From positions 1 to 14,336 of IMG/VR virus record IMGVR_UViG_2537561825_000009: 14,336 nucleotides of DNA; one strand, written 5' to 3'. Made by a program: the position numbers and the translations under genes. The notes under the pieces were generated by a model, which was given only the letters and a program-made list of their open reading frames with translations, was not told where the DNA came from and made no database searches. This DNA is from a virus (lineage: Duplodnaviria > Heunggongvirae > Uroviricota > Caudoviricetes). Every line of letters starts with the position of its first letter. Position 1 is the stretch's first letter. Shown in pieces: positions 1-14,336 of this stretch.

Positions 1-1
1 G

Positions 2-781
2 ATTCAGGACGCCCTGAAATCCTGTGGCTTACCGGTGGGTGCCGTGCAGGCGATTGATAATCCTGACCGTGCGCTGGTCAGTGAAATGCTGCGTATGGAT
101 AAATACATCGACATGCTGATCCCGCGTGGTGGCGCTGGTTTGCATAAACTGTGCCGCGAACAGTCGACGATCCCGGTGATCACAGGTGGTATAGGCGTAT
201 GCCATATTTATGTTGATGAAAGTGTAGAGATTGCTGAAGCATTAAAAGTGATCGTCAACGCGAAAACTCAGCGTCCGAGCACATGTAATACGGTAGAAAC
301 GTTGCTGGTGAATAAAAACATCGCCGATAGCTTCCTGCCCGCATTAAGCAAACAAATGGAGGAAAGCGGCGTGGCATTACACGCAGATGCAGCTGCGCTG
401 GCGCAGTTGCAGACAGGCCCCGCGAAGGTGGTGGCTGTTAAAGCGGAAGAGTATGACGATGAGTTTCTGTCATTAGATTTGAACGTCAAAATCGTCAGTG
501 ATCTTGACGATGCCATCGCCCATATTCGTGAACACGGCACACAACACTCCGATGCGATCCTGACCCGCGATATGCGCAACGCCCAGCGTTTTGTTAACGA
601 AGTGGATTCGTCCGCTGTTTACGTTAACGCCTCTACGCGTTTTACCGACGGCGGCCAGTTTGGACTGGGTGCGGAAGTGGCGGTAAGCACACAAAAACTC
701 CACGCGCGTGGCCCAATGGGGCTGGAAGCACTGACCACTTACAAGTGGATCGGTATTGGTGATTACACCATTCGTGCGTAA
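2..781 (+). CDS. proA: gamma-glutamyl phosphate reductase, C-terminal part (5' end lies upstream of the window)
   Basis: The frame is open from the window start to a TAA at 779-781. The translation ends ...[23 protein letters not shown], which I recognise as the enterobacterial ProA C-terminus. thrW follows immediately, as in the E. coli proA-thrW arrangement. Confidence 0.9.
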
Positions 782-895
782 ATAAAACCGGGTGATGCAA
801 AAGTAGCCATTTGATTCACAAGGCCATTGACGCATCGCCCGGTTAGTTTTAACCTTGTCCACCGTGATTCACGTTCGTGAACATGTCCTTTCAGG

Positions 896-971
896 GCCGA
901 TATAGCTCAGTTGGTAGAGCAGCGCATTCGTAATGCGAAGGTCGTAGGTTCGACTCCTATTATCGGCACCA
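896..971 (+). tRNA. thrW: tRNA-Thr (anticodon CGU)
   Basis: 76-nt sequence GCCGATATAGCTCAGTTGGTAGAGCAGCGCATTCGTAATGCGAAGGTCGTAGGTTCGACTCCTATTATCGGCACCA. The acceptor stem GCCGATA/TATCGGC pairs, the D-arm is GCTC...GAGC, the T-arm is GGTTCGACTCC, the anticodon loop carries CGT, and the 3' end is CCA. Confidence 0.93.
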
Positions 972-985
972 TTAAAATCAATAAG
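926..985. other. putative prophage attachment site (attL) overlapping the 3' half of thrW; exact core not determinable from one junction
   Basis: The integrase stop codon (986-988, minus strand) lies 14 bp past the tRNA CCA end. P22-type integrases recombine within the 3' end of thrW (established knowledge). The attR copy is not in the window, so the core length is inferred. Confidence 0.3.
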
Positions 986-2149
986 TTACACATCATTAGT
1001 ACCTTCCTTATTTTTTGACTGGGACAAATTTGGGACCGGTGGGTTCAGGATCGAGTCTATTTGCCGTGCGTGTTCGGTAAGGTGATTAGGTGCAAGGTGA
1101 GCATATCGACGAACCATTTCGATAGACTCCCAGCCTCCCATTTCCTGTAACACTGACAACGGGACTCCGGCTTGAACCAGCCAACTTGCCCAGGTGTGTC
1201 TCAAGTCGTGAAATCTGAAATCATCAATACCAGCCCGTCTCAGCGCCGCTTTCCAGGCTGTGTTTGCGTCATACCGCATCTTCCTTACTGTTGGCGCTTT
1301 CGTTCCGTCTGGTTTGGTACAGCTTTCCTTGTACACAAATACCCAACGGTGATGATTCCCGATTTGTTTTTTCAATACGCGACATGCAGTATCATTCAGC
1401 GCAACGCCAATTGCGCGGTTTGATTTACTCTCTTCCGGGTTTATCCATGCCACCCGGCGCTGCATATCTATTTGTTGCCATTCAAGGTTGATGATGTTCG
1501 AGCGTCTTAAGCCTGTTGCCAGTGCAAATTCAACAACAGACTTTAATGGCTCCGGACATTCATCAATCAGCCTTTGTGCTTCATGGGGCTTCAGCCAGCG
1601 GATCCGTTTATTCTTTGGTTGAGGCACTTTAATAATTGGTGCCTTATCCAGCATTTTCCATTCACGCTCTGCGGCTCTTAGTAGGGCCTTTATAAATGAA
1701 AGATGCGTAGCCTTCGTTGCAACGGACGCTGGTTTTGGCGTGTATTCTGGAACAGGTTTCCCTTTTTTTCTGCATGCTTCTGCCCTGAGTTTCCAGTTTT
1801 CCTCATGACGCCGGTTCGTCATTTTCTGCATTGCTGAATAAATTTTTGATTCAGTAATGTCTCTTAGTTGCATTCCTGCGAAATGTTGAAGCCAGAATCC
1901 GATCCGGCTTTTGTCATCGTCCAGTGATTTTTTATGTGCTTTCTCTTCAAGCCACCTGACACACGCTTCCTCGAACGTTATATCAGGTATTTCACCAAGT
2001 TTGCTGACCCGCCATGCTTCAGCCTTTAGCTTGTCATGGAGTTCTGTCGCCTGCCTTTTGTCCTTTGTTCCAAGAGACTGTTTAAATCTTTTACCGTTCG
2101 GCAATGTGAAACTGGCGTACCATATTTCACCTCTGCGGAAGAGTGACAT
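986..2149 (-). CDS. int: tyrosine site-specific integrase, P22 Int-like (387 aa)
   Basis: N-terminus [41 protein letters not shown] and C-terminal catalytic region ...[42 protein letters not shown] (R..HxxR..Y signature) match the P22 integrase as I recall it. An SD (AGAGGAAAG) precedes the ATG, and the gene sits next to the tRNA. Confidence 0.95.
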
Positions 2150-2376
2150 TTTCTTTCCTCTGTTATGCCATCACCCGCGCTCACCTGGACAGTATGCAGC
2201 GGAGACTGAAGAGCCGCAATGCAGGCTTGTCGTGTTGTGAGGTAAGGAGATTTATTCTTAGTGGGATCTTTGCGTGTTGCCTGAAGACGCCCTGTGCGTA
2301 TCCAGTTAATGGCAGTCGGTCTGGATATCTTGAGAAAATGACAGGCCTCATCGAGTGTGAGGCTGTATGGCTCCAT
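2026..2376 (-). CDS. xis: excisionase, P22 Xis-like (116 aa), 3' end overlapping int
   Basis: Internal Met of ORF 2026..2460 begins [36 protein letters not shown], a helix-turn-helix excisionase-like N-terminus. The resulting length of 116 aa matches P22 Xis. Its ATG overlaps the TAA of the upstream ORF (TAATG at 2374-2378 on the minus strand). Confidence 0.75.
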
Positions 2377-2681
2377 TATTTCACCTCTTGCTGTGACATT
2401 GTTGAAAAATGGATACCAGCTCGTTGCTGCCAGACGATCCAACCGAGAGTCATATCCCATGCCATGTATTCGTTATTGCCGTTTTTTGCTCTCCGACGAT
2501 CTACTAAGTCACCGAAACGCTTTTCCATGAATAATTCATAAGCTTCGCGTTCATCTGGTTCTACTTCCAGAGATAGGAGTGCGATTTCATAAGCACGGCG
2601 CTCAATATCGTCTCGCACGTCAAGGCTGCTGATACGCTCTTTAATTTCTTTAATCAGTTCTTTGTCGGTAAAAGTGGTCAT
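2376..2681 (-). CDS. yfdT: hypothetical prophage early protein (101 aa), YfdT-like by size and position
   Basis: Acidic, helical-looking ORF (MTTFTDKELIKEIKERISSLDVRDDIERRAYEIALL...) translationally coupled to both neighbours. Its length and place in the operon fit the yfdPQRST pattern as I recall it. No motif recognised. Confidence 0.5.
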   Translation of the reverse strand: MTTFTDKELIKEIKERISSLDVRDDIERRAYEIALLSLEVEPDEREAYELFMEKRFGDLVDRRRAKNGNNEYMAWDMTLGWIVWQQRAGIHFSTMSQQEVK

Positions 2682-3043
2682 TATGCTCCAGCCTCCGGTG
2701 CTTTTGGCATTACTGCCCAGTGAGTGATATTGACGTTTTCAAGGTCCCCGACCTGAAATGTCCACTGCCATTCTCCGGTTTCTTTTTGTCCCCAGGTGTA
2801 CCAGAGAGAACGCCAGCCAATTAGCCAGCCTTCTCCGTTAGCATCGAATAACAAAACACTTTCATTTGCTGGTGGCAGTTCAGTTGACACTGGTATTACT
2901 TTGTTTTCCTGTGCTGCACATTTAGCTTCAAGCGCATCGAATTTACGCACCAGGTATTCAGCATCTGTTTCATTTACTTTCAGATCTCGCGGTACACATC
3001 TCCCACGAAGAAACCCTTCCATTTCGAAAACATTCATGCGCAT
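2681..3043 (-). CDS. yfdS: DUF551-like prophage protein (120 aa), YfdS-like
   Basis: Trp-rich C-terminal half (...GWLIGWRSLWYTWGQKETGEWQWTF...NITHWAVMPKAPEAG) resembles the DUF551 signature (...THWMPLPEPP). The ORF overlaps its upstream and downstream neighbours. Confidence 0.6.
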   Translation of the reverse strand: MRMNVFEMEGFLRGRCVPRDLKVNETDAEYLVRKFDALEAKCAAQENKVIPVSTELPPANESVLLFDANGEGWLIGWRSLWYTWGQKETGEWQWTFQVGDLENVNITHWAVMPKAPEAGA

Positions 3044-3570
3044 TTGCGTAACTCCGATAACTCGTTAAAGCGTTCCATAAACATCCCGTAGGCATGGCCC
3101 GGTGCCAGTGGAATCACGTTGAACATCTCTGTTGCCGGGATACCTTCCAGTACAGGCCAGAAAGAGCCATCATCAAGCCCGAGATCGCGGCGTTCGGTTG
3201 CCAGCATGATGAGATCGGCATATTTCACGGGCGTACTCATAACTGGGGGTAACCCGTATTTCTCACGGATTACGGCGTCTATTTTTTCTTCCATTTGTTT
3301 ATAGTCAGGAAGAAGGCGTTTCAGTGGTGCGGGAATGTCCTGGCAATACGCTTCTGTTGCATCATGCATTAACGCTTCAAAAGCAAATTCCTGCGGCACC
3401 AGCTGGCTGCAAAGAACCGCATGTTGGGCGACGCTGTAGAAGTGCGAAAGATGACCGGCAAAGCGACAGATATTTGAAAGGGAAACCGCGATATCGTTAA
3501 TATCGATGTCGTCTTTATTTATCCTGTCATAATAAAAATGCTTCCCGGAAAAAGTTTTAATAAATGACAT
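3034..3570 (-). CDS. yfdR: HD-domain phosphohydrolase / 5'-deoxynucleotidase-like (178 aa), YfdR-like
   Basis: His...HD metal-binding signature (FAGHLSHFYSVAQHAVL ... ALMHDATEAY). Start chosen at the ATG at 3570, which is preceded by GTGGAGAACAAA (an SD), rather than the GTG at 3597. The 178-aa length equals YfdR. Confidence 0.75.
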   Translation of the reverse strand: MSFIKTFSGKHFYYDRINKDDIDINDIAVSLSNICRFAGHLSHFYSVAQHAVLCSQLVPQEFAFEALMHDATEAYCQDIPAPLKRLLPDYKQMEEKIDAVIREKYGLPPVMSTPVKYADLIMLATERRDLGLDDGSFWPVLEGIPATEMFNVIPLAPGHAYGMFMERFNELSELRKCA

Positions 3571-3697
3571 TTTGTTCTCCACGTATATGCGCTGCACCGC
3601 GCTGAATTCTGGTAAAAAGAATCCCTCACCATCCGGCGATTATTGAGTAAATTACGTTTCCATAAATGCCCCCGCAGGGGCATTTGCAGTAATGAAA

Positions 3698-4522
3698 TCA
3701 GGCGGTGAAAGTACCAATAAAGGTTTCTACTTTGCTGTCCTTGAATTTCTCAACAAGCAGCTCACGAAATTCGTTAGCCATTTCTTCCTGCACCGCCTCC
3801 AGCTGAATAATGCGCAGAACCAGTACAGGACGATCGCCAGTGATAATACTGAGGCGTAATTTAAACGGACGTTCTTTCAGACCTTCAAACGGAACGCATT
3901 TAAATTCAAATGCCACTGGCATAATGTCTTTGGTCTTCGCTTCGACAGACTCCATCAGGGAGCGTTTGCCGCTGAAGTCATTATCTTCAAAATCAGCGGT
4001 CTGGTTTGCTTCAATCGTGATTTTACGGACAGCCGCAGCCGCTTTTGTTGCCTGAATAGCGTCACCATTAGCATCAAAGCCCACAAGATAGTCGGCCCAG
4101 TCTTCAATCCATTCTGCTAGTGACTTCTGGGAGTTACGCTCGCCGTTAACAGACAACAGAGCAGAGAACGGTGCTGTCTTTTTCAGTTTGAGTGTGGCGG
4201 TGTTATCTGCGTGACCTGGTTCATCAATAGTACCTAGGTTAAGCACACTGACGGCACGCATATTATCAGCATCGATAAAGCAGCGGGTGCCTTCATCTGC
4301 AAGATCTTTAGAATAACGGGTAAAATCATCGATGCTGGCAGTGGAAAGCGCACCACGGAAACGGAAGCGATTTAAATTAAATTTTTCCAGATCATGAATG
4401 CGGAAATTCTCAGGCAATGCCACAGCATCGGCACCAATCTTACTGATAATTTCATTAACACCCTGAGCAGAAATAAGGGCATGGATTTGATTAATTGCGG
4501 TTGCGTCTAAGTTCTGAGACAT
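3698..4522 (-). CDS. yfdQ: DUF2303-family prophage protein (274 aa), YfdQ-like
   Basis: Clean 274-aa ORF with an SD (GTGAGGA) 8 nt before the ATG. Size and neighbourhood (between the yfdP-like and HD genes) match YfdQ. Family assignment is from memory, not alignment. Confidence 0.7.
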
Positions 4523-4587
4523 AATAAGTCCTCACTATATAAAGATATTCAGTGATGAGATAAATAATCAGTTAATTAAAAACGATA

Positions 4588-4950
4588 TTAACGACCTGCT
4601 GCGCGGAGTTTTCCGTCAGGTTCACCGGCAAGAGTCAGCAACTGTCCCTGGTCTTCCTGCAGAATAGTCAGGCGACCACCGCGATTGACATACATCGGCG
4701 TTTCGGTGGTGTCTTCTTCGGAAATTTTCCCGCGGTTAGTCGGGCGAACATATGAGAGTTTGTGTTTGATTTTCACTCGGTTCTCATCAAACGGTTCGAT
4801 TTCTAGGTTGAGCGAGACCTTACCTTTGGTTTTCGTGTTCATCACACCGGAAGCGACTTCACTGAGAACTGCGCCGATTTTGGTTTCAAATACGCCGCCG
4901 TCCAGCTCCCCGATAAATGCCTGCACATCAGTACTGCGTTCGCTAGCCAT
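4588..4950 (-). CDS. yfdP: hypothetical prophage early protein (120 aa), YfdP-like; first gene of the leftward operon
   Basis: ATG at 4950 is preceded by AGGAGCAGCAAA (SD AGGAG, roughly 7 nt spacer). The longer 226-aa upstream extension in the ORF track runs through the GC-rich hairpin region and lacks a better start. Confidence 0.6.
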   Translation of the reverse strand: MASERSTDVQAFIGELDGGVFETKIGAVLSEVASGVMNTKTKGKVSLNLEIEPFDENRVKIKHKLSYVRPTNRGKISEEDTTETPMYVNRGGRLTILQEDQGQLLTLAGEPDGKLRAAGR

Positions 4951-4998
4951 TTTGCTGCTCCTCATCATATCGACCCTGCAAGGTCGGTTAGTTTCTCC

Positions 4999-5087
4999 AC
5001 AAAACAGAGAAGAACACCTGCGGTGACTGCCGCCCGGATGGATTGGGTTATGAGCCCGTCGTCCGGTGATGCTCTTCTCTGTTTTGT
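4999..5087. repeat. long perfect inverted repeat (15-bp arms ACAAAACAGAGAAGA / TCTTCTCTGTTTTGT, 59-nt spacer) in the GC-rich leader of the leftward operon
   Basis: Arms at 4999-5013 and 5073-5087 are exact reverse complements. The spacer contains further short stems (GCGG..CCGC, CCGG..CCGG). Confidence 0.8.
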
Positions 5088-5096
5088 AAAAAGGAC

Positions 5097-5131
5097 GGTA
5101 CCAGCCGGAAGCAAGGGTACAAGCTGGTACC
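5097..5131. promoter_or_regulatory. operator-like inverted repeat GGTACCAGC-N17-GCTGGTACC with an internal GGTACAAG half-site (candidate OL)
   Basis: Shares the GGTACAAG / CTTGTACC half-site with the palindrome in the cI-cro intergenic region. It lies upstream of the first leftward early gene. Confidence 0.35.
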
Positions 5132-5419
5132 GCCAAGACTACACACAGCATAAAGTTGTGGTGCCGGGTGCCTCCCGGTGCCTGGCGAAGGTTGCACACC
5201 AGGCGGGTGGGTATCCACAGAAGGTCGACTGTCAGCCTCAACCTTAACCCGCGTGCGCTGAGCCGCATTCACCACAACGCTAAGGATTCTCTCTGGTTGA
5301 AAATACTTAGCTGTTATGTGCCTGCTTTTAGCCACATCAGGCGAGGTGGACCTAGTTATTCCCCAACAACAAGGATTCGGTTAATCTGGATATCCCCAAC
5401 AACAATAAGAGTATTCAAT

Positions 5420-5935
5420 GTGATCGCTGAATTAACGGCAGCAATGACGGCTATTCGTGAAATCGCCCAGATTGCAAAACTAATGAACGAGGCAAAAACT
5501 CAAGCTGAAGTAAATGCGGCTATTGGTGAGCTGAACTCAAAGCTTGCGTCTATTCAGCGCGAATGCGTGTCTCTCGTTGAACTGCTGGGCTCTTATCAAG
5601 AAATAAATGCTTCTCTCAAAGCTAAAATTGCAGAATTCGAAAACTTTGAGGCTCAGACGGAAGGCTATATCCTTAACCAACTTGAGTCGGGTACTTTTGT
5701 ATACTCGAAGGAGGTAATCGTGAACGGTGACAGCATAACCATGCATCTTTGCCCAAAATGTTTTGGACAAAAGATAGTATCGATACTTCAACCATTCCCG
5801 GTTAGCGAAGATGAGCTTTTTCATAAAAGCAGGTGCCTCCACTGTGAAAATAAGTTTCTGATGAATAAAAATCCGGATTACGTATCGCCTCCATCCATTG
5901 AGGAGTTGGCCAGAAAACTTAACGGCAATCTGTAG
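5420..5935 (+). CDS. hypothetical coiled-coil / C4 zinc-ribbon protein (about 171 aa from the GTG at 5420, or 163 aa from the ATG at 5444); immunity-region moron
   Basis: N-terminal heptad-like segment (AIREIAQIAKLMNEAKTQAEVNAAIGELNSKLASIQRE...) and C-terminal CPKCFGQ...CLHCENKF (CxxC-N29-CxxC). It is on the strand opposite to both flanking operons and has its own intrinsic terminator. The start codon is uncertain because the SD is weak. Confidence 0.6.
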   Translation: MIAELTAAMTAIREIAQIAKLMNEAKTQAEVNAAIGELNSKLASIQRECVSLVELLGSYQEINASLKAKIAEFENFEAQTEGYILNQLESGTFVYSKEVIVNGDSITMHLCPKCFGQKIVSILQPFPVSEDELFHKSRCLHCENKFLMNKNPDYVSPPSIEELARKLNGNL

Positions 5936-5974
5936 ATTGCTACTGTTGTGGATATCCAGATTGTTAAAGAGCGA

Positions 5975-5998
5975 AGCGTCCTATAGGGCGCTTTTTTG
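5975..5998 (+). terminator. rho-independent terminator of the moron gene
   Basis: Stem AGCGTCC / GGGCGCT (7 bp, one G-U pair) with a TATA loop, followed by TTTTTT, 40 bp after the stop codon. The reverse strand has no T-tract. Confidence 0.7.
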
Positions 5999-6077
5999 TT
6001 GCTAACGAATCATCCTGGACTTCATATGCTCCAGGGGGCTACTTCGTGGGCGTCCTGCCTGTTTGTTGTTTCTCTTG

Positions 6078-6114
6078 GGTACATTATGTATCTCAAAGGT
6101 ACATTGTCAAGTAT
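6078..6114. promoter_or_regulatory. pair of operator-like GGTACAT sites (GGTACATTATGTATC and GGTACATTGTCAAGTAT) just beyond the cI terminator
   Basis: Same GGTACAT core as the site overlapping the cro SD and start codon (6903-6916). Confidence 0.3.
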
Positions 6115-6136
6115 AAAAAAACCTGCCGAAGCAGGT
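6114..6136 (-). terminator. rho-independent terminator of the cI transcript
   Basis: Hairpin ACCTGC-cgaa-GCAGGT (6121-6136) followed on the minus strand by a 7-nt U-tract (A-run 6114-6120 on plus), 14 bp after the cI stop. Confidence 0.65.
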
Positions 6137-6149
6137 TCATAAACATTGA

Positions 6150-6824
6150 TTAGGCTTTGATTTTGTATCTTCTTGGTTTTCCTGAGAAAATCACAGTTCC
6201 AATTATAGAGCAATTACCGTTGATCTTAATGTAAGGCTCAGGCCAGTTTGGGTTTAACGCTTTGAGATAACGCTGTGTCCCATCTTCTATCAACCTTTTG
6301 AAGGTGGTTTCACCTGTATCGTGCATCAATGCAATAACGTCGTCACCGTGGCAGGCAGGTACTTCAGGATCGACAAAAATCATGTCTCCCGGGCGGTACT
6401 CATCAATCATTGAATCACCTATCACCCGCAAGATATAAGTCATTTCCCCACAGGGTACAGGGCAGGGATACGTTTCTGCTGTGCTCAAATCAACCTCAGA
6501 ATATCCAACTTCTTTCCATGCTCCGGCCTGTACCCATGATATGACAGGGACTAATGTGATTTGTTTATTAGTGATTGAAACATCAGGTTTTTTTGTGATG
6601 TTCGTTGTCTGGTGTTCTTGATCGAGCCATCCGACAGGCAGGTCGAAACATTTTTCGATGTGTCGTGCCATGCTGTCACCGATATTTTTAGTAGCACCAT
6701 CTCCCATAAACCTGCTGGTCTGGGTTGGCTCGCGATCAATCATAGTGGCAAAGGAAGAATTCCCGCCAACACCATCTCTCAGTTTTCTGGCGTTAGACCG
6801 CCGGATGTCATGGATTGTTTTCAT
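6150..6824 (-). CDS. CI-type prophage repressor with C-terminal LexA-like S24 peptidase domain (224 aa)
   Basis: N-terminal HTH-like region, long linker, then an S24 autopeptidase core with GDSM (Ser nucleophile) and a downstream TFKRL lysine. Divergent from the cro-like gene across an operator-bearing intergenic region. Confidence 0.88.
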   Translation of the reverse strand: MKTIHDIRRSNARKLRDGVGGNSSFATMIDREPTQTSRFMGDGATKNIGDSMARHIEKCFDLPVGWLDQEHQTTNITKKPDVSITNKQITLVPVISWVQAGAWKEVGYSEVDLSTAETYPCPVPCGEMTYILRVIGDSMIDEYRPGDMIFVDPEVPACHGDDVIALMHDTGETTFKRLIEDGTQRYLKALNPNWPEPYIKINGNCSIIGTVIFSGKPRRYKIKA

Positions 6825-6839
6825 AACGAAATTAAAACC

Positions 6840-6860
6840 CTTGTACCGTTAAGGTACAAG
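6840..6860. promoter_or_regulatory. operator palindrome CTTGTACC-GTTAA-GGTACAAG in the cI/cro divergent promoter region (OR)
   Basis: Perfect 8-bp inverted arms located 16 bp upstream of the cI ATG and immediately upstream of the candidate pR -35 element. Confidence 0.6.
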
Positions 6861-6864
6861 TATC

Positions 6865-6892
6865 TTGAAGGTTCATTTCAATCATGTAATAT
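6865..6892 (+). promoter_or_regulatory. candidate pR promoter for the cro-like gene (-35 TTGAAG, 16-bp spacer, -10 TAATAT)
   Basis: Hexamers and spacing read from the sequence. The predicted transcript start is about 20 nt before the cro ATG and includes the GGAGG SD. Confidence 0.4.
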
Positions 6893-6914
6893 GTACGCCG
6901 GAGGTACATATTGT

Positions 6915-7115
6915 ATGAAAGCGTATTGGGACTCTTTAACCAAAGAACAGCAGGGCGAGTTGGCCGGAAAAGTTGGCTCAACACCTGGCTACTTACGGCT
7001 GGGTTTCAATGGCTATAAAAAAGCCAGTTTTGTGCTGGCTAAAAAACTTGAGCAATGCACGTCAGGTGCAATTACGAAATCTGACTTAAGACCGGATATC
7101 TATCCGAAAGATTAG
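6915..7115 (+). CDS. Cro-like HTH regulator, YdaS family (66 aa)
   Basis: ATG at 6915 is preceded by GGAGG with a 10-nt spacer. The protein ...LAKKLEQCTSGAITKSDLRPDIYPKD shares the C-terminal LRPDI motif I recall from YdaS-type Cro proteins. The 167-aa track ORF overlapping cI is a spurious extension. Confidence 0.8.
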   Translation: MKAYWDSLTKEQQGELAGKVGSTPGYLRLGFNGYKKASFVLAKKLEQCTSGAITKSDLRPDIYPKD

Positions 7116-7146
7116 CAGAACACTTTCAATTTTTAACCACAGAACG

Positions 7147-7716
7147 ATGAGGCTAATCGTGGGTAAGCATCACTGGAAAGTAGAAAAACAGCCTGAGTGG
7201 TACGTGAAAGCTGTCAGAAAAACTATCGCGGCGTTGCCGGGTGGTTACGCTGAAGCGGCTGACTGGCTCGATGTAACAGAAAACGCTTTATTCAACCGCC
7301 TTCGTGCAGATGGCGATCAGATTTTCCCGCTGGGATGGGCAATGGTTTTACAGCGTGCTGGTGGCACTCACTTCATTGCTGATGCTGTGGCGCAGTCTGC
7401 AAATGGCGTCTTTGTGTCTCTTCCTGACGTCGAAGATGTGGACAACGCCGATATTAACCAGCGTCTGCTGGAAGTCATTGAACAGATCGGCAGTTATTCA
7501 AAACAGATTCGTTCAGCAATCGAAGACGGTGTAGTGGAACCGCATGAGAAGACAGCAATTAACGACGAGCTGTATCTCTCAATTTCGAAGCTGCAGGAGC
7601 ATGCAGCACTTGTCTACAAAATTTTTTGCATTTCAGAAAGTAATGACGCCCGCGAGTGTGCAGCTCCGGGCGTCGTGGCGTCGATTGCTTCTGGTTGTGG
7701 AGAAACTAACGCATGA
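7147..7716 (+). CDS. CII-like / YdaT-like phage regulatory protein (189 aa; possible GTG start at 7159)
   Basis: Sits in the cII position directly after cro. Size and composition are consistent with the phage CII (CP76)/YdaT family. The GTG at 7159 has a closer GAGG SD than the ATG at 7147. Confidence 0.55.
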
Positions 7717-8051
7717 ACAGTTTAACAACACACTACCGTCGCTCGCAACTGATTGCGCTTCCTGTACCGGGTGGAAAAGCGAAGGTGGAATATTGCTATG
7801 CAGTGAATGTACCAGGTGACAGGGAAATTGTAACCCACAGCTTTGCAGAGTGGGCTGTGGGTGATTTCAACCGGCAGAAGGAGACAGTCCTTTGCGACAA
7901 GTTAACCGCTGGTTCAAAGATCACTACGGAGTGCCCGTCAGAGTCATTCGTTGGGAGCCGGAAACACAACGGGTTATCTACCTCCGCGAAGGTTATGAGC
8001 ATGAATGCTTCAGTCCGCTCGAACAGTTTCGTCGTAAATTCAGGGAAATAG
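7713..8051 (+). CDS. hypothetical protein (112 aa); possibly only the N-terminal half is genuine
   Basis: ATG overlaps the stop of the upstream gene (ATGA). The C-terminal third is Ser-rich and low-complexity, while another frame over the same DNA encodes a more protein-like sequence (see next feature). Confidence 0.4.
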
Positions 8052-8071
8052 AGGTCGGTCATGAGCACTAA
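7892..8071 (+). CDS. candidate small protein (59 aa, TTG start) translationally coupled to the replication gene
   Basis: Strong SD GAAGGAGA 8 nt before the TTG. Translation [59 protein letters not shown] looks like a folded domain. Its stop overlaps the start of the O-like gene by 11 nt. It falls just below the 60-aa ORF-track threshold. Confidence 0.35.
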
Positions 8072-9002
8072 ATTAACCGGCTATGTATGGGATGGTTGCG
8101 CTGCATCAGGCATGAAGTTATCCAGCGTGGCAATTATGGCCCGCCTGGCTGATTTCAGTAATGACGAAGGTGTGTGCTGGCCATCAATTGAAACCATTGC
8201 CCGTCAGATTGGCGCGGGGATGAGTACCGTCAGAACGGCTATCGCACGGCTGGAAGCAGAAGGCTGGTTAACGCGTAAGGCGCGTCGCCAGGGTAACCGC
8301 AATGCGTCGAATGTTTATCAGCTTAACGTTGCGAAGCTTCAGGCAGCGGCATTTTCTCAACTGTCAGATTCTGACCCGTCAAAATCTGACGCATCAAAAT
8401 CTGACCCGTCAAAATTTGATGCGTCGAAATCTGGCAAAAAAGCGGGTTTTCACCCGTCAGAATCTGGCGGGGATCCGTCAGTAAAATCAAAACATGATCC
8501 GTCAGATAAAAAACCTTCTCGTCCGGACGCTTCGCAACCGGACACGCAGACGGCTGAACAGGATTTTTTAACTCGCCATCCTGATGCGGTTGTATTCAGC
8601 CCTAAAAAGCGCCAGTGGGGGACGCAGGATGATTTGACCTGCGCACAGTGGCTCTGGAAAAAAATCATCGCCCTGTACGAGCAGGCTGCCGAATGTGACG
8701 GCGAGGGGGTTCGTCCCAAAGAACCGAACTGGACAGCCTGGGCAAACGAAATTCGCCTGATGTGTGTGCAGGATGGTCGTACTCACAAACAAATCTGCGA
8801 GATGTACAGCCGCGTCAGCCGCGATCCGTTCTGGTGCCGTAACGTGCTCAGCCCGTCGAAGCTGCGGGAAAAATGGGATGAGCTTTCCCTGCGCTTATCG
8901 CCGTCCGTAAGCACGTACACCGAAAAACGCGAAGACCCGTACTTCAAATCCAGTTACGACAACGTGGACTACAGCCAGATCCCGGCAGGATTCAGGGGGT
9001 GA
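8061..9002 (+). CDS. phage replication initiator, O-like (N-terminal winged-helix domain, repeat linker, C-terminal DnaT-like domain; 313 aa)
   Basis: N-terminus ...VAIMARLADFSNDEGVCWPSIETIARQIGAGMSTVRTAIARLEAEGWLTRK is a typical replication-initiator HTH. The central part is encoded by DNA iterons. The C-terminal Trp-rich region (...CAQWLWKKIIALYEQ...PNWTAWANEIRLM...) is typical of the DnaT-like domain. Confidence 0.8.
   Translation: MSTKLTGYVWDGCAASGMKLSSVAIMARLADFSNDEGVCWPSIETIARQIGAGMSTVRTAIARLEAEGWLTRKARRQGNRNASNVYQLNVAKLQAAAFSQLSDSDPSKSDASKSDPSKFDASKSGKKAGFHPSESGGDPSVKSKHDPSDKKPSRPDASQPDTQTAEQDFLTRHPDAVVFSPKKRQWGTQDDLTCAQWLWKKIIALYEQAAECDGEGVRPKEPNWTAWANEIRLMCVQDGRTHKQICEMYSRVSRDPFWCRNVLSPSKLREKWDELSLRLSPSVSTYTEKREDPYFKSSYDNVDYSQIPAGFRG
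8358..8515. repeat. origin-type iteron array inside the O-like gene (TCTGACCCGTCAAAA-like units)
   Basis: Four consecutive 15-bp units at 8370-8384, 8385-8399, 8400-8414 and 8415-8429, plus further degenerate CCGTCA-containing copies to about 8515. They encode the DPSKSDASKSDPSKFDASKS repeat in the protein. Confidence 0.7.
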
Positions 9003-9017
9003 TCATGAGTCTGTTAA

Positions 9018-9536
9018 ATGACGTTCAGAAATTCATTGAAGCCCAAAGATATTGTTGGTGTATGGACCGTATGTCACGGGCATATTGCACCGCCAGATAT
9101 TCCGGCAGGCTTCGTGGCTGTTTTCAACAGTGATGAGGCATCGTGGCATCTCGTTGAAGACCATCGAGGTAAAACGGTTTATGACGTGGCATCAGGGGAC
9201 GCGTTATTTATTTCTGAACTCGGTCCGTTACCGGAAAATGTTACTTGGTTGTCACCGGAAGGGGAATATCAGAAGTGGAACGGCACAGCCTGGGTGAAGG
9301 ATACGGAAGCAGAAAAACTGTTCCGGATCCGGGAGGCGGAAGAAACAAAAAACAGCCTGATGCAGGTAGCCAGTGAGCATATTGCGCCGCTTCAGGATGC
9401 TGCAGATCTGGAAATCGCAACGGAGGAAGAAACCTCGTTGCTTGAAGCCTGGAAGAAGTATCGGGTGTTGCTGAATCGTGTTGATACATCAACTGCACCT
9501 GATATTGAGTGGCCTGCAATCCCTGTTATGGAATAA
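9018..9536 (+). CDS. tail fibre assembly protein (Tfa) homologue, probably a 5'-truncated remnant (172 aa)
   Basis: From [35 protein letters not shown]... to ...[17 protein letters not shown] is the conserved Tfa body as I recall it. The first ~21 residues ([21 protein letters not shown]) are unrelated, there is no good SD, and no tail fibre gene lies upstream. Confidence 0.65.
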
Positions 9537-10089
9537 TCGTTCCTGTTGTAGCCACAGTCACGTCATATACAAGAACTTGCCGGCCTAAGAAGAGTTCGTG
9601 CTGATTTTGAATATAAAATCAGCATTACAACGCCCGAAATACCCAGGCTAAAAAATTTCTTAGGACATTATCAGCTGGCGATACATAGATGGACTGGATA
9701 CTAGACCGATAGAGGCGCTGTATGCGTCATCTTGTCGTGATGCTGGCGAAGTTGTGCGAACGAAGTATTAACTTTTGCAGCCTAGCTGATTCAATTGATG
9801 CAGCCACACTAACGGGGCGCTTTTTTCCATGTAATGGTTGTAGAAGATGTTACTGAGAGGGATTAAATGAAACAGCAAATACGTCATATGTTAGAGCATG
9901 TTGTGGTTGACTGTTGAACACACCTATCACAAATGTGCTTCTTTAGAAAGAGAATTTACATAAGCAAATTGCAACATGTTTTTTTTCTGAGTAAATAGTA
10001 TGATTAACAATGCTGACTACCATTTTCTTACATGGCGAACCTAATTAAGAATTAAACGCGAGTAGATTACCCGCTTTAGAGGAGGATTT

Positions 10090-11031
10090 ATGTCCGGTTA
10101 CTGTTTTTACTCTCAGGATGCATTAGCCTTAGCCCAGGCAGCTGGTGTTGATGTAATAATAAACGAGTATGCTGAGAAGAATAAAAAACAGACATATGTT
10201 CTTTGTCGTCCCCTGTCAAATGAGGATGTAAAGTATGATTATGACCAAGCGATAGCGGTATTTTCGGCTGGTATAAAACCTTTTTTTATGAATTTAGGAG
10301 ATGACGTCGAACTCTTTGAAGAGTATCAAGAGGATTTTCTAGAGGATGTATCATATTTAGCAGAGAAATTTAAGTATCGTAGTAAAATTGGAAGAAAAAA
10401 GACATGGCAAGATTTATTTGAAGTACTTTCTGTTGGTGATGCCGATTTCAGTAAGCTGGAGGTTGAAACTAAAGAAAGTAGAATAATTGATTTGCTAATC
10501 TCGCTTATTGTGGGAAGTATTAACGATACTTCAAGAATTAATCTTGAAGCAAGTAATTTATTAGATACAATAAAATCAAAGATTATTTTATTTGATACTG
10601 ATCAAACAAAATTCGTTTTCCAAAGTGGAATTGGAAAAAAGACTGTAATACAAGGCTTGGCTGGTTCGGGGAAAACAGAACTCCTTTTACATAAATTAAA
10701 AGAGGTTTATTTAAGGAACCCTGATGCTAAAATTGCATTTACTTGTTTTAATAAAATACTTGCATCTACAATGAGAACTAGGATACCAGAGTTTTTTGAT
10801 TTTATGCGAGTGGAAAAGCAAATTGAATGGGGTACGAAACTTTTTTGTTTTAACTCTTGGGGTTTGACTAAAGATCCCTTTTCTGGGATGTATAGATATA
10901 TATGTCATTATTACGAAATTCCATTCGGTGGTTTTGGCAACGGAGATTTCGATGCTCTTTGCAAAAAAGCCATTTTGGATATAAAAAAAGTGGGCGGTCT
11001 GATGAAAAAGCTCTCGATTATGTGTTTATAG
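10090..11031 (+). CDS. UvrD-like SF1 helicase, N-terminal segment: unknown ~185-aa domain plus Walker A and motif Ia; frame ends 42 nt after an A7 tract
   Basis: Strong SD AGAGGAGGA before the ATG. Walker A GLAGSGKT at residues 189-196 and Ia-like FTCFNKILAS. GC content is clearly lower than the flanking prophage. Confidence 0.75.
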   Translation: MSGYCFYSQDALALAQAAGVDVIINEYAEKNKKQTYVLCRPLSNEDVKYDYDQAIAVFSAGIKPFFMNLGDDVELFEEYQEDFLEDVSYLAEKFKYRSKIGRKKTWQDLFEVLSVGDADFSKLEVETKESRIIDLLISLIVGSINDTSRINLEASNLLDTIKSKIILFDTDQTKFVFQSGIGKKTVIQGLAGSGKTELLLHKLKEVYLRNPDAKIAFTCFNKILASTMRTRIPEFFDFMRVEKQIEWGTKLFCFNSWGLTKDPFSGMYRYICHYYEIPFGGFGNGDFDALCKKAILDIKKVGGLMKKLSIMCL

Positions 11032-12077
11032 ATGAAAGCCAAGATTTTCCACAAAGCTTCATTGAACTATGTGAAATGGTTACATCTAAAAAACTATATG
11101 TAGCGGGCGATGTATTTCAAAATATATTTATGCCGATTAATGATAACGTGAATCGAGCAGATATAGTTCTTAAAAAATGTTATCGCACAGATCCAAAGAA
11201 CTTAATGTTTTCTCATGCACTAGGAATGGGACTTTATGAGAAACCGGTGCTTCGGTGGTTGAAAGAGACTGAGTGGGATTCTTGTGGATATAAATATAAT
11301 AAGGTTGGGGATAGAGTACATTTATCTAGGGATCCGTTAAGACGCTTTGAAGATATTCCAAAAAATCATAAAAGTACGGCTATTCATTTACTAAAAGAAG
11401 TGGATAATGGTCCTGATAAAATAGTTGAAATTATTAAGGATATTCAGGCCCGCAATCCTACTTTAGAGCAAGGAGATATAGCAGTCATTTTCCTTGATGC
11501 TAGTGGTTATATTTATGATTATATTCAATCACTAAAATCAAAAGTCAAGTTGCAGCTTGGTTGGGACTCTAATATTTCACATGAGACAAAATCAAAACAA
11601 GATGGGAAGCTTTTTATTTCCAATATAAACAATGCAAAAGGGCTTGAGTTCCCATTTGTTATTTGTTTTGCTATGAAATTAGTAAAGAGAGCAAACTTTC
11701 GAAATGCTCTGTATACTATGATGGCTAGATCTTTTTTAGAAAGCCATTTAGTTTTAAATAATGATAATGAAAATCCGGCAATGCCTACTATTATTGAAGG
11801 TTTAGATTTTCTCAATAAAAATGATTATATGGATGTAAGACTTCCGTCGGATGAGGAAATAAACAATCAAAAGGATTATATTATTTTGGATGAGTCTACC
11901 TCTATTAATCAAATGGTTAGAAAATATTGTGAAGATAAAAAATCCACACCTCGCTTAATAGCAAAAGTTACTCACACTGTAGAAACTATAATAGCAGGTC
12001 TTGATGATGATGATGTCGATGATGACTATATAAATAGATTGATTGAAATAGAATATATAAGGAATAAAAAGTTATGA
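10902..12077 (+). CDS. UvrD-like SF1 helicase, C-terminal segment (motifs II-VI) in the alternate frame; the real join is at the A7 tract 10983-10989
   Basis: Motifs DYVFIDESQDF (II), LYVAGDVFQNIF (III), CYRTD (IV), ISNINNAKGLEFPFVI (V, UvrD_C-like) and ALYTMMARSF (VI), then an acidic tail DDDDVDDD. Adding one A to the A7 run fuses the two segments into a single 662-aa protein. Confidence 0.75.
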   Translation: MSLLRNSIRWFWQRRFRCSLQKSHFGYKKSGRSDEKALDYVFIDESQDFPQSFIELCEMVTSKKLYVAGDVFQNIFMPINDNVNRADIVLKKCYRTDPKNLMFSHALGMGLYEKPVLRWLKETEWDSCGYKYNKVGDRVHLSRDPLRRFEDIPKNHKSTAIHLLKEVDNGPDKIVEIIKDIQARNPTLEQGDIAVIFLDASGYIYDYIQSLKSKVKLQLGWDSNISHETKSKQDGKLFISNINNAKGLEFPFVICFAMKLVKRANFRNALYTMMARSFLESHLVLNNDNENPAMPTIIEGLDFLNKNDYMDVRLPSDEEINNQKDYIILDESTSINQMVRKYCEDKKSTPRLIAKVTHTVETIIAGLDDDDVDDDYINRLIEIEYIRNKKL

Positions 12078-12712
12078 GTTTTTATTTCTTTAATAATGTA
12101 CCTACAGTGTACCTTGAAAAGTTCTGCGCTGTAAGAGATGCATTTTCCAATCTGGAAAATCTTCTTATTGCTGCGGAAATTATAAATACATGTCATGACT
12201 GTTGGAATAAAGAAACAAATGATTTCGATTTGCTAATAAGTACTGGTACTCATAAGCGAATTCTGGTGAGGAAACCGGATGGTTTTTTTTCTATGAATTT
12301 ACCATTTCAAGTAATTGAGTATGAAAGCAATATCTGTTTTAACTATGATGCCTATGGGCTTCCTGTTAATGCAGAGTTTATTTCTCGATGCAGGAATGTA
12401 ATAAATACTTGCAGTAATGGCGCTTTTTCTCAGGAGGCAATTGCTCTTGAATTGTGTGATAACTTTGATCGAGATATTCAAAGTGCTATAAATTATGCTG
12501 ATGCAATTTGTTCATTGTTGTTAGTTGATCATGGGTATTTTAGGTTTGATGATGATCCTAAAAATGCGAAGGATAAAGTGCATCCAAGATATCACTTTGA
12601 TTTTTTCTTCAATAATTCTACTAATGTAAAGATAGGCTGTAATACTCGTTTGGATGAATCATTTTTTTTAGAACTATTTGATGTAAATAAAGACCGCCCC
12701 TATCTGGCTTGA
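12074..12712 (+). CDS. hypothetical cysteine-rich protein (212 aa), translationally coupled to the helicase
   Basis: ATG overlaps the helicase stop (ATGA at 12074-12077). Nine Cys residues including a CHDC pair. Same low GC as the helicase. No recognisable family. Confidence 0.7.
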   Translation: MSFYFFNNVPTVYLEKFCAVRDAFSNLENLLIAAEIINTCHDCWNKETNDFDLLISTGTHKRILVRKPDGFFSMNLPFQVIEYESNICFNYDAYGLPVNAEFISRCRNVINTCSNGAFSQEAIALELCDNFDRDIQSAINYADAICSLLLVDHGYFRFDDDPKNAKDKVHPRYHFDFFFNNSTNVKIGCNTRLDESFFLELFDVNKDRPYLA

Positions 12713-12714
12713 AT

Positions 12715-12740
12715 TATAAGCGCCCATCAGGGCGCTTATA
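12715..12740. other. very stable hairpin (11-bp perfect stem TATAAGCGCCC / GGGCGCTTATA, 4-nt loop) 3 bp after the 212-aa gene
   Basis: Read directly from the sequence. There is no U-tract on either strand, so it is not a canonical intrinsic terminator. Confidence 0.6.
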
Positions 12741-13162
12741 GGGTGAGATGAGTATTATAAAGAGTCTGTTTTGGGTAGTGTTTTTATAAATATTTACATA
12801 TATCATAACTTTTGCCAATGTAATATTTGAATTCTTCTATTACGTATTTAAGTATCGTTTGGCTTTTTTTCTTTGGCTATCCTGCACTCAATAAGCATAA
12901 AAATCCATTTACATTGTTTTTGCATATGACATGTTTTTAATTGTTCGAATGGATCGTGTTAGTACTATTTTATCTGGTAAAAAGCAGATGTAGATATTAG
13001 GAAGTTTTTTTTGAATGATAATGGAGCAATTAAGATTTTTTATTCTAACCATTCCCTAGAAATACTCTGCCTAAAAAATAGACATAATATGGCAACCATA
13101 ATAGGCCGGTTTTTGGTGGCATGAAAGGATTTTTAATCCTTGTGCCTGACACCTTATCATGA

Positions 13163-14031
13163 TTATGAAAGACCGTAGTATTTATTTAGCGCGGTGGTAG
13201 CGGCTTGAGTTGCTACAGCTATTCCTATACCCAAAATACCATGGGCTGCTTTACTTGCAATATTTGCCAGCCATTTACTAACAGATTGACCGTATTCATC
13301 ACGTCTGTTAGCTATCGGGCCATCTTCACCAATAGCAATTTCTAAATCGTTTACATCAGATTTAGGAAACCCCTGAGCTAAGAGATATTCTTTTAATGAT
13401 TCAATGTTGTTTTTTACGATATGGTTATTCACAGAAAATGAGTTTTCATTTCCGAAGTTTATAACAGTATTGTCTCCAAAAATTGAGTTATGAAACAATG
13501 AAGACGTGTCGATATTTTTAAGTTTTTCTGTCATGTTTTTCTCATCTGATATTTCAGAAACTTGATCAGAAAGTTCAAGTATAAAATCAAGTAGCCGTGA
13601 TCTGACCTGAGTTAAGATGGAAGTGAAGTTATGTAGCGCGATCTCTTTATAACAGCATGTTAACTCATAGCCTCTATCGATACCTTTGCAATATTTAACT
13701 AATGCATAATCTAAAGGAATTGGCTGCTGCAGGGTATGGCTATCACCAGCATTGGTTACTAGGTCTTCGATTTGACTGATTGAAAGTCTAACTTTACTGG
13801 TTGTAGCATCTTCATAGTCATCTTCACTGAGATAGCCAATCGGTAAAGGAAAAGCTCTATATAGGCGAATGCCATTGTTCAGATCTGCAAGAATTCTTGT
13901 GCCAACAATTCTATAATCGGGAAGGGAAACTGAATCAGAATAACCGTTTATCTCATGATTTACCCATGCAGCAAGCTCCTTTTTCCCGATAGAGAAAAGA
14001 AGGATCTTTGTTTTTATGAGAGCATCTGTTG
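13163..14031 (-). pseudogene. 3' fragment (at least 289 codons) of a gene for a protein with a C-terminal glycine-zipper TM helix; 5' end interrupted by the IS66-family element
   Basis: Minus-strand frame is open without any stop from the IS end (14031) to the TAA at 13163. In-frame ATG/GTG/TTG are absent for 165 codons upstream of the Met at 13534. C-terminus is ...WLANIASKAAHGILGIGIAVATQAATTALNKYYGLS. Confidence 0.6.
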
Positions 14032-14336
14032 GTAAGCGGCTCGTCAGAACCGTATTGATATTTACTGAGAGCTCAGATCAACTTTCCAGGGCAACAGATC
14101 GCGTACCCGGTTTGCCGGCCAGTCCTGGATATGTTCAATGACGTAGCGCAGCCACTTTTCTGGCTCCACATTGTTCAGACGGCATGTGCCGATCAGCGAG
14201 TACAACACCGCCGCATGTTCACCACCGCTGTCGGAACCCGCGAACATCCACTTTTTCCGGCCTACGGCCACTCCCCGTAAGGCGTTCTCTGCGATGTTGT
14301 TGTCGATTTCCACCCAGCCATTACTGCAGTACACGT
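14032..14336 (-). mobile_element. IS66-family insertion sequence, terminal ~300 bp (rest beyond window end)
   Basis: Terminus begins GTAAGCGGCTCGTC at 14032, the GTAAGCG end typical of IS66-family inverted repeats, 30 bp outside the transposase stop. Confidence 0.7.
14062..14336 (-). CDS. IS66-family transposase (TnpC), C-terminal part; 5' end beyond window
   Basis: ...VEIDNNIAENALRGVAVGRKKWMFAGSDSGGEHAAVLYSLIGTCRLNNVEPEKWLRYVIEHIQDWPANRVRDLLPWKV matches the conserved IS66 TnpC C-terminal region as I recall it. Confidence 0.85.
   Translation of the reverse strand, partial: VYCSNGWVEIDNNIAENALRGVAVGRKKWMFAGSDSGGEHAAVLYSLIGTCRLNNVEPEKWLRYVIEHIQDWPANRVRDLLPWKVDLSSQ

Follow-up and report, generated by a model that had tools for sequence, protein, structure and literature searches.

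The sequence analysed here is a stretch of 14,336 nucleotides from IMG/VR virus record IMGVR_UViG_2537561825_000009, referred to as the window. It contains an AT-rich block with two abutting, co-oriented genes, a superfamily 1 (SF1) helicase of the STM2767 family and a 212-residue partner of the STM2766 family. The pair is probably a two-gene defence cassette, catalogued by NCBI under a name without a function. Coordinates are collected in Table 1. Two sequences served for comparison with the window, E. coli HCP5S3_I4 (L001) and E. coli S1-NGR-02-A (L002; NZ_CP145679), the latter differing by 4 mismatches and 2 single-base indels across 14,336 bases. The G+C content is 0.30–0.38 across approximately 9750–14000 and 0.44–0.55 in the rest of the window, in agreement with the AT-rich island described in an earlier reading of the letters alone (the original prediction).

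The helicase matches NCBIfam model NF053713 ("STM2767 family DEAD/DEAH box helicase") over residues 4–655 with 903.7 bits (cut-off 550), a score taken on the repaired protein, i.e. the L001 copy, which equals that of the window except for a missing A. Its Pfam domains, UvrD_C_2, AAA_19 and UvrD-helicase, account for the SF1 core only. Helicase motifs I, II, III, IV, V and VI are invariant in an alignment of the family, and the invariant sequences DESQD, GDVFQN, CYRT, NNAKGLEF and LYTMMARS are all present in the window helicase. Its first ~157–185 residues form an N-terminal domain with invariant or near-invariant positions Y36, Y49, K63, D86, Y96, G101, R102, W106 and 138-SLxxGSIND-146. A scan of 25 such N-terminal domains returned no recurrent Pfam family, and searches of PDB sequences with profiles of the N-terminal domain, the helicase and the partner gave no match.

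The original prediction of an SF1/UvrD helicase behind an unrecognised domain of about 185 residues is borne out for motifs and domain, but not for the integrity of the gene. A run of eight A residues is shortened to seven, which splits the coding sequence into open reading frames (ORFs) 10090–11031 and 10902–12077 in different frames; compared with L001 there are zero mismatches and this one missing A. Among the 32 complete E. coli genomes that carry the pair, the sequence is full-length (2,624 bp, without net length change) in 31, although one of these 31 is interrupted by IS1. In L002 the helicase is intact and the partner is frameshifted (T8 to T7, window positions 12276–12283). Because the lesions of both sequences fall in homopolymers, they could be assembly errors or signs that the cassette has been decaying independently in this lineage. 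The window helicase is probably either a pseudogene or, given the homopolymer, the product of an assembly error, and, as it carries a 1-base frameshift, this copy of the cassette is probably inactive.

The partner matches NCBIfam model NF053714 ("STM2766 family helicase-associated protein") over residues 4–211 with 202.9 bits (cut-off 70). Its translational coupling to the helicase had been recognised correctly; the remark that no family could be assigned to it gives way to this match. Clustered at 50% identity, the partner family has about 390 representatives, which with few exceptions are stand-alone proteins of 200–230 residues. Across 36 diverse members, one motif is invariant: Y155-x-R157-x-D159-x-D161 ... 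H170-P171-x-x-H174-x-D176. The partner had also been called cysteine-rich. This is true of the window sequence, which has 9 cysteines, but it is no trait of the family, since no cysteine occupies an invariant or 90%-conserved column; a zinc-binding cysteine protein was rejected as its identity on the same ground. An AlphaFold2 model built on a 33-sequence alignment reached a predicted local distance difference test score (pLDDT) of 78.9 and a predicted template modelling score of 0.75, compared with a pLDDT of 34 for a single-sequence run. Residues 1–150 are modelled with confidence, with a helical bundle behind an N-terminal part of mixed alpha/beta structure.

Are the two genes together by chance? 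A conservative pattern scan of GTDB, with one genome per species, found a helicase relative in at least 160 of 100,044 species representatives, and the best 80 of these loci (helicase identity 39–87%; none from E. coli) were used for analysis of the unit. They span six phyla: Proteobacteria, Bacteroidota, Firmicutes, Cyanobacteria, Fusobacteria and Campylobacterota. At 73 of the 80 loci the helicase is followed, at −14 to +13 nucleotides, by an ORF of 205–230 residues that matches a hidden Markov model of the partner (E = 1e-9 to 1e-107). Three further loci have a slightly displaced partner match, so adjacency extends to 76/80. The overlap is exactly 4 nucleotides in 31 of 71 cases. When all flanking ORFs of the 80 loci were clustered all against all, only helicase and partner emerged as conserved. 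Pairwise identities of the two proteins correlate (r = 0.89), with the partner evolving faster (mean pairwise identity 29% vs 46% for the helicase). Within E. coli the pair is rare and patchy (32 of 5,426 complete genomes, 0.6%), and its genes are adjacent in all 32. Helicase and 212-residue partner are a strictly conserved, co-inherited two-gene unit, as the original prediction had proposed should be checked across genomes. At four to five loci (L026, L028, L037, L056 and similar), a small family of ORFs of 87–93 residues lies on the same strand ~330–350 nucleotides upstream of the helicase; it may be a regulator.

The type genes of NF053713 and NF053714 are STM2767 and STM2766 of Salmonella Typhimurium LT2. 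The Salmonella pair has the same arrangement and is 88% (helicase) and 83% (partner) identical to that of the window. These family names, which recent annotations by the NCBI Prokaryotic Genome Annotation Pipeline apply, imply no function. A literature search by gene name, WP accession and NF model retrieved no functional study of STM2766 or STM2767; the mentions of STM2767 that were found use it only as a landmark for deletions of the fljAB region in Salmonella.

Does the pair resemble any system of established function? The closest candidate is the combination of a helicase with a DUF2290 protein, described from a P4-satellite hotspot of K. pneumoniae SB5961, which blocks T7 specifically (Rousset et al. 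2022; PMC9122126). In Lactococcus, a DUF2290/helicase system failed to protect against the phages with which it was challenged (PMC11381338), and reviews list the mechanism of helicase + DUF2290 as not determined. PADLOC represents the system, under the name Rst_HelicaseDUF2290, by models PDLC03002 (helicase) and PDLC02998/02999 (DUF2290). The window helicase matches PDLC03002 with E = 3.6e-32, but only over residues 158–346 and not over its full length. A second tier of helicase matches, at ~25% identity, appeared when plasmids were searched by tblastn; at all eight loci inspected, a helicase of ~710–725 residues is directly followed by an annotated DUF2290 protein. These true DUF2290 pairs match positions 1–704 of the 707 in PDLC03002 (E = 0 to 4e-168) and the DUF2290 models with E = 1e-18 to 1e-78. 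An STM2767-type pair from Lactococcus behaves against the PADLOC models as the window pair does.

Profile comparison nevertheless connects the two systems. The helicase cores of STM2767 and the DUF2290 system are homologous (hhalign 99.9%, E = 6e-36, residues 158–596), and the partners align over 46 columns of the core motif (hhalign 87%, E = 3.8e-6), which reads GY-x-R-Y-D-x-D...HP-x-x-H-x-D in the STM2766 family and P-I-R-x-D-F-D...HP-x-S-H in DUF2290. Among the 36 partner relatives, ten weakly match PF10053 (best 9.4e-4) and seven PDLC02998 (best 1.7e-4), and DUF2290 is the only family that recurs among such weak matches. In both systems the genes are co-oriented and abutting, with the helicase first and a partner of ~200–260 residues, and both are found on prophages, satellites and plasmids, in variable hotspots. 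The differences are substantial as well: the helicases are only ~25% identical, their C-terminal tails do not align, and the STM2767 type is ~660 residues long vs ~710–725 for the DUF2290 type. A NERD-like N-terminus, as in DUF2290-type helicases, was considered and is unsupported (hhalign E = 0.11, probability 0.5%; the N-terminal 157 residues remain unaligned). Core homology, the shared partner motif and gene order together lead us to read STM2767/STM2766 as a putative sister branch of helicase + DUF2290, remote and outside current detection models. Its helicase has a different N-terminal domain and its partner is strongly diverged; most of the partner, like the first 157 residues of the helicase, has no relative that could be recognised. 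The claim that the system is not yet described was too strong, given the paired NCBI models and this distant relationship to a validated system. That the pair might prove clearly homologous to a characterised system had been named as an outcome that would speak against novelty; such homology exists, in a weak and remote form.

The original prediction had set the pair apart from Gabija, Hachiman and Nhi, and we reach the same conclusion. Gabija likewise pairs a UvrD-like SF1 helicase with another protein in a defensive setting, and a similar logic of sensor helicase and effector is plausible. In the window, however, the partner has 212 residues, lies downstream, lacks an ATPase or TOPRIM domain and has no PADLOC match, and the gene order is reversed. 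PADLOC models of GajB match the helicase with E values of 1.8e-5 or weaker, over only 30–60 residues around Walker A and other motifs. Among the PADLOC matches at E ≤ 1 there is no model of HamA, HamB or Nhi. Hachiman combines HamA (DUF1837) with an SF2 helicase, HamB, whereas the window helicase has SF1/UvrD-type domains, and Nhi is a single large helicase-nuclease rather than a two-gene pair.

In E. coli the pair directly follows the tail-fibre-assembly gene, at the distal end of lambdoid prophages. The host gene at the adjoining prophage junction varies: strain 3985 has ssrA there, strain C4 prfC. In HCP5S3_I4 the cargo beyond the pair consists of an AbiTii gene, a SMEK-domain protein and IetA/IetS; together with AbiTii, this region is a multi-system defence island that ends an intact lambdoid prophage. 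Its outer part (L001 16818–22585) comprises the SMEK-domain gene, IetA/IetS (PADLOC 5.5e-77 and 4.7e-27) and then an ORF of 125 residues. The Salmonella pair adjoins hin-fljBA and an integrase fragment. An invertase neighbour is common to both genera, as the window pair adjoins a Hin/Pin-type fragment.

In Lactococcus lactis, an STM2767/STM2766-type pair on plasmid pUL021B (L083 4896–7516) abuts a type III restriction-modification system. For this pair and those of related conjugative dairy plasmids, helicase identity is 39%, and the 212-residue partner is annotated as hypothetical. Because PADLOC models miss the lactococcal partner, a plasmidome defence survey may have overlooked the pair. 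Across the 80 loci the neighbours are heterogeneous and include methyltransferases, ResIII, HNH, RES and RtcB proteins, integrases, resolvases and transposases. Only 5 loci with the pair were found in IMG/VR, beside tail genes or an integrase, and tblastn of 50,697 sequenced phage genomes returned no match to it.

The position at the prophage end, the variable flanks and the lack of a phage-genome match argue against a role in a replication module. An ordinary phage replication gene set was rejected as the identity of the pair on the basis of that missing match and of its place beyond the tail-fibre genes. Regular occurrence inside phage replication modules, which the original prediction had named as evidence that would count against it, was not found. 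The context of the pair fits accessory ("moron") or defence cargo.

Table 1. Features of the AT-rich block and its borders in the window (positions are those of the window)
Feature	Position	Strand	Remarks
Tail-fibre-assembly gene, 5'-truncated	9018-9536		
Decayed Hin/Pin-type serine DNA invertase fragment	9650..9826	+	tblastn with Salmonella Hin
AT-rich leader 5' of helicase	9850..10089	+	Shine-Dalgarno GAGGAGG at 10079-10085
STM2767-family SF1 helicase gene	10090..12077	+	intact product 662 residues, WP_000017384.1
Helicase N-terminal domain	10090..10560	+	residues 1 to ~157; family-wide conservation
Walker A / motif I GLAGSGKT	10654..10677	+	residues 189-196, K195; invariant in family alignment
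Frameshift site, A8 run to A7	10975..10982	+	~codon 296; global alignment to L001 and L002
STM2766-family helicase-associated protein	12074..12712	+	212 residues, intact; ATG overlaps helicase stop (ATGA)
Perfect 10-bp inverted repeat, 4-nt loop, ATAAGCGCCC-ATCA-GGGCGCTTAT	12716..12739	.	3 nt past partner stop
5'-truncated AbiTii-domain gene	13163..14031	-	residues 18-306 of 306-residue WP_033803116.1
IS66-family element end (ISCro1-like)	14032..14336	-	terminal repeat begins GTAAGCG near 14034

From left to right, the window contains a tRNA-Thr gene (thrW), an integrase, a prophage remnant of the yfd/ymf type, fragments of a tail-fibre-assembly gene and an invertase, the AT-rich block and an IS66-family element. 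The AT-rich block is bounded by the truncated tail-fibre-assembly gene on one side and the IS66-family element on the other. The location at a broken prophage end beside an insertion sequence had been called typical of defence islands; elsewhere the pair sits in variable, mobile and defence-type contexts. Positions 1–9536 represent a thrW prophage without its entire late region. A helix-turn-helix gene of the early region (8061–9002) runs with almost no gap into what is left of the tail-fibre-assembly gene, its 3' part, which fits a large internal deletion sparing the terminal cargo. The window is a decayed form, at thrW, of the prophage-end arrangement of the pair in E. coli. The invertase fragment was detected with Salmonella Hin (residues 47–105; E = 2e-12, 44% identity) and is interrupted by in-frame stops; the prophage tail-fibre region ends with this fragment, which lies outside the module. 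Also outside the module, in the 3' part of the tail-fibre-assembly fragment, is a partial match to Rfam RF02111 (IS009 small RNA) at 9400–9493 on the plus strand, with 91.8 bits vs a gathering score of 117; the 5' side of the match is clipped by the start of the query.

The leader upstream of the helicase is conserved together with the module in other E. coli. A promoter scan of it found sites no more numerous than in shuffled sequence and no convincing promoter. Downstream of the partner, an AT-rich spacer of 450 bp (12713–13162) separates the convergent genes and contains no convincing ORF, no Rfam match and no consensus terminator. The inverted repeat at its beginning is a possible transcript-end hairpin between these genes, though with no T-run; a terminator scan did not call it, and the results of that scan did not rise above shuffled background.

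The convergent gene had been described as a membrane gene of 123 residues ending in a glycine-zipper helix. The helix is present, a hydrophobic, glycine-zipper-like segment at the C-terminus (AAHGILGIGIAVATQAATTAL); the 123-residue ORF is an artefact of start-codon rules, because the frame is open up to the IS66 junction and encodes a truncated form of a 306-residue AbiTii-domain protein. From residue 18 onward the translation is identical to that of L001 15315–16235 on the minus strand. Scores for the domain were taken on the intact L001 protein (Pfam PF18864, E = 3.7e-34, residues 4–192; PADLOC AbiTii, 3.3e-33). Homology with L001 ends at position 14031. The C-terminus of an IS66-family transposase is encoded at 14062–14334, and the near-identical L002 carries an annotated IS66-like ISCro1 transposase. 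The insertion removed the promoter, start and first 17 codons of the AbiTii gene.

Compared with lactococcal AbiT (AbiTi + AbiTii), the N-terminal 190 residues of the convergent protein match the AbiTii domain, and it has an extra C-terminal region of ~110 residues with the hydrophobic helix. No annotated gene is paired with AbiTii in L001 or in a further E. coli context (L092), AbiTi homology itself not having been searched; in the window the AbiTii gene is not intact and no AbiTi-like partner is evident. All 80 non-E. coli loci lack AbiTii and SMEK homologues within 8 kb, and AbiTii is missing from two of the five E. coli contexts examined, those of strains 2 HS-C and C4 (L093, L094). It is on these grounds that we regard AbiTii as an independent neighbour, a separate single-gene abortive-infection candidate that is broken here.

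What, then, does the pair do? We consider it reasonably probable, judging by its relatives and its context, that it is a mobile two-gene cassette, a divergent sister of helicase + DUF2290, most likely protecting the lysogen from other phages or mobile DNA. Helicase and partner would form a complex, a picture that their tight translational coupling and co-divergence fit. The helicase may load on or translocate along foreign DNA or replication intermediates, its N-terminal domain conferring specificity, while the partner may supply an effector or trigger activity through the invariant residues R157, D159, D161, H170, H174 and D176. This Arg/Asp/His cluster would resemble a metal-binding hydrolytic site. 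Such a complex, with the partner as a putative metal-dependent effector, is proposed by analogy to helicase-effector defence pairs. A bolder version, which we put forward only tentatively, is that STM2767/STM2766 could be a distinct, widespread immune system missed by present tools, with the N-terminal domain as a new sensor and the partner as a new His/Asp metal-dependent effector of a fold absent from the PDB.

Several observations weigh against the main reading of the pair as a defence cassette. The connection of the partner to DUF2290 depends on an alignment of ~46 columns with 87% probability, and the window partner itself has no match in Pfam or PADLOC at E ≤ 1, the DUF2290 models (PF10053, PDLC02998/02999) included. 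Anti-phage activity has been demonstrated for the K. pneumoniae DUF2290 system, but that validated relative protects only against T7, and the lactococcal one against none of the phages tried. The motif region of the partner (residues 150–212) is of low confidence in the AlphaFold2 model (pLDDT 49–64), the model has no fold match in the PDB or BFVD, and its neighbours indicate no hydrolase fold; the motif could instead be an interface with the helicase. Finally, the survey of neighbouring genes was qualitative and had no background control.

Could the pair serve other ends? It might be part of a three-gene system in which the convergent AbiTii membrane protein is the effector, as the original prediction allowed when it spoke of two or three genes. 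AbiTii does lie 450 nucleotides downstream in the window, L001 and L092, and its C-terminal helix would suit an effector. Yet the clustering of the 80 loci revealed two conserved genes only, with no AbiTii nearby; 2 HS-C and C4 have the pair without AbiTii, and a further 15 E. coli genomes, without the pair, have the AbiTii region at 90–95% identity (47 vs 32 genomes). The co-occurrence data largely refute a three-gene system, which we consider highly improbable, and of the two proposed sizes it is the two-gene unit that stands.

Less improbable, but still unlikely, is a housekeeping function, in which the helicase and an accessory factor would serve the prophage or plasmid on which they reside in its replication, recombination or repair. 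SF1/UvrD-like helicases often function in replication and repair, the pair is found on plasmids and prophages, and there is a weak, partial match to HelD (E = 1.9e-8). Against it stand its absence from the sequenced phage genomes and the prophage copies past the tail-fibre genes at the attachment end instead of in the replication module; the pair is also found in chromosomal islands whose flanks vary completely, just 0.6% of E. coli genomes carry it, and the closest of its relatives to have been characterised is a defence system. Slightly better placed, though also improbable, is a conflict system with other targets, either excluding plasmids and mobile elements or acting as an addiction module that stabilises the island, in which the helicase would restrain a toxic partner. 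The narrow or nil anti-phage range of the relatives (T7 only; none in Lactococcus) would suit this, as would the tight coupling of the genes and their frequent occurrence on plasmids, adjoining BrnTA toxin-antitoxin loci and insertion sequences. However, the helicase-first order, the 4-nucleotide overlap and the protein sizes are unlike those of classical toxin-antitoxin pairs. In addition, L002 has a frameshifted partner with an intact helicase and the window the reverse, so that neither gene is obviously lethal alone, even if both frameshifts may be assembly artefacts.

For the window itself the practical message is modest, as this copy is probably inactive and its AbiTii neighbour is broken. 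For the family, the analysis defines a sister clade that is larger than the catalogued system and strictly syntenic in its two genes. As PADLOC models miss the partner, censuses of defence systems probably miss such cassettes. The far end of lambdoid prophages, past the tail-fibre-assembly gene, is added as a cargo site in E. coli. The invariant polar residues common to the clade and DUF2290 (R, D, D, H, H) make site-directed tests straightforward, and if the pair is indeed a distinct immune system with a new effector, it would open a first route to the mechanism of the DUF2290 superfamily as a whole.

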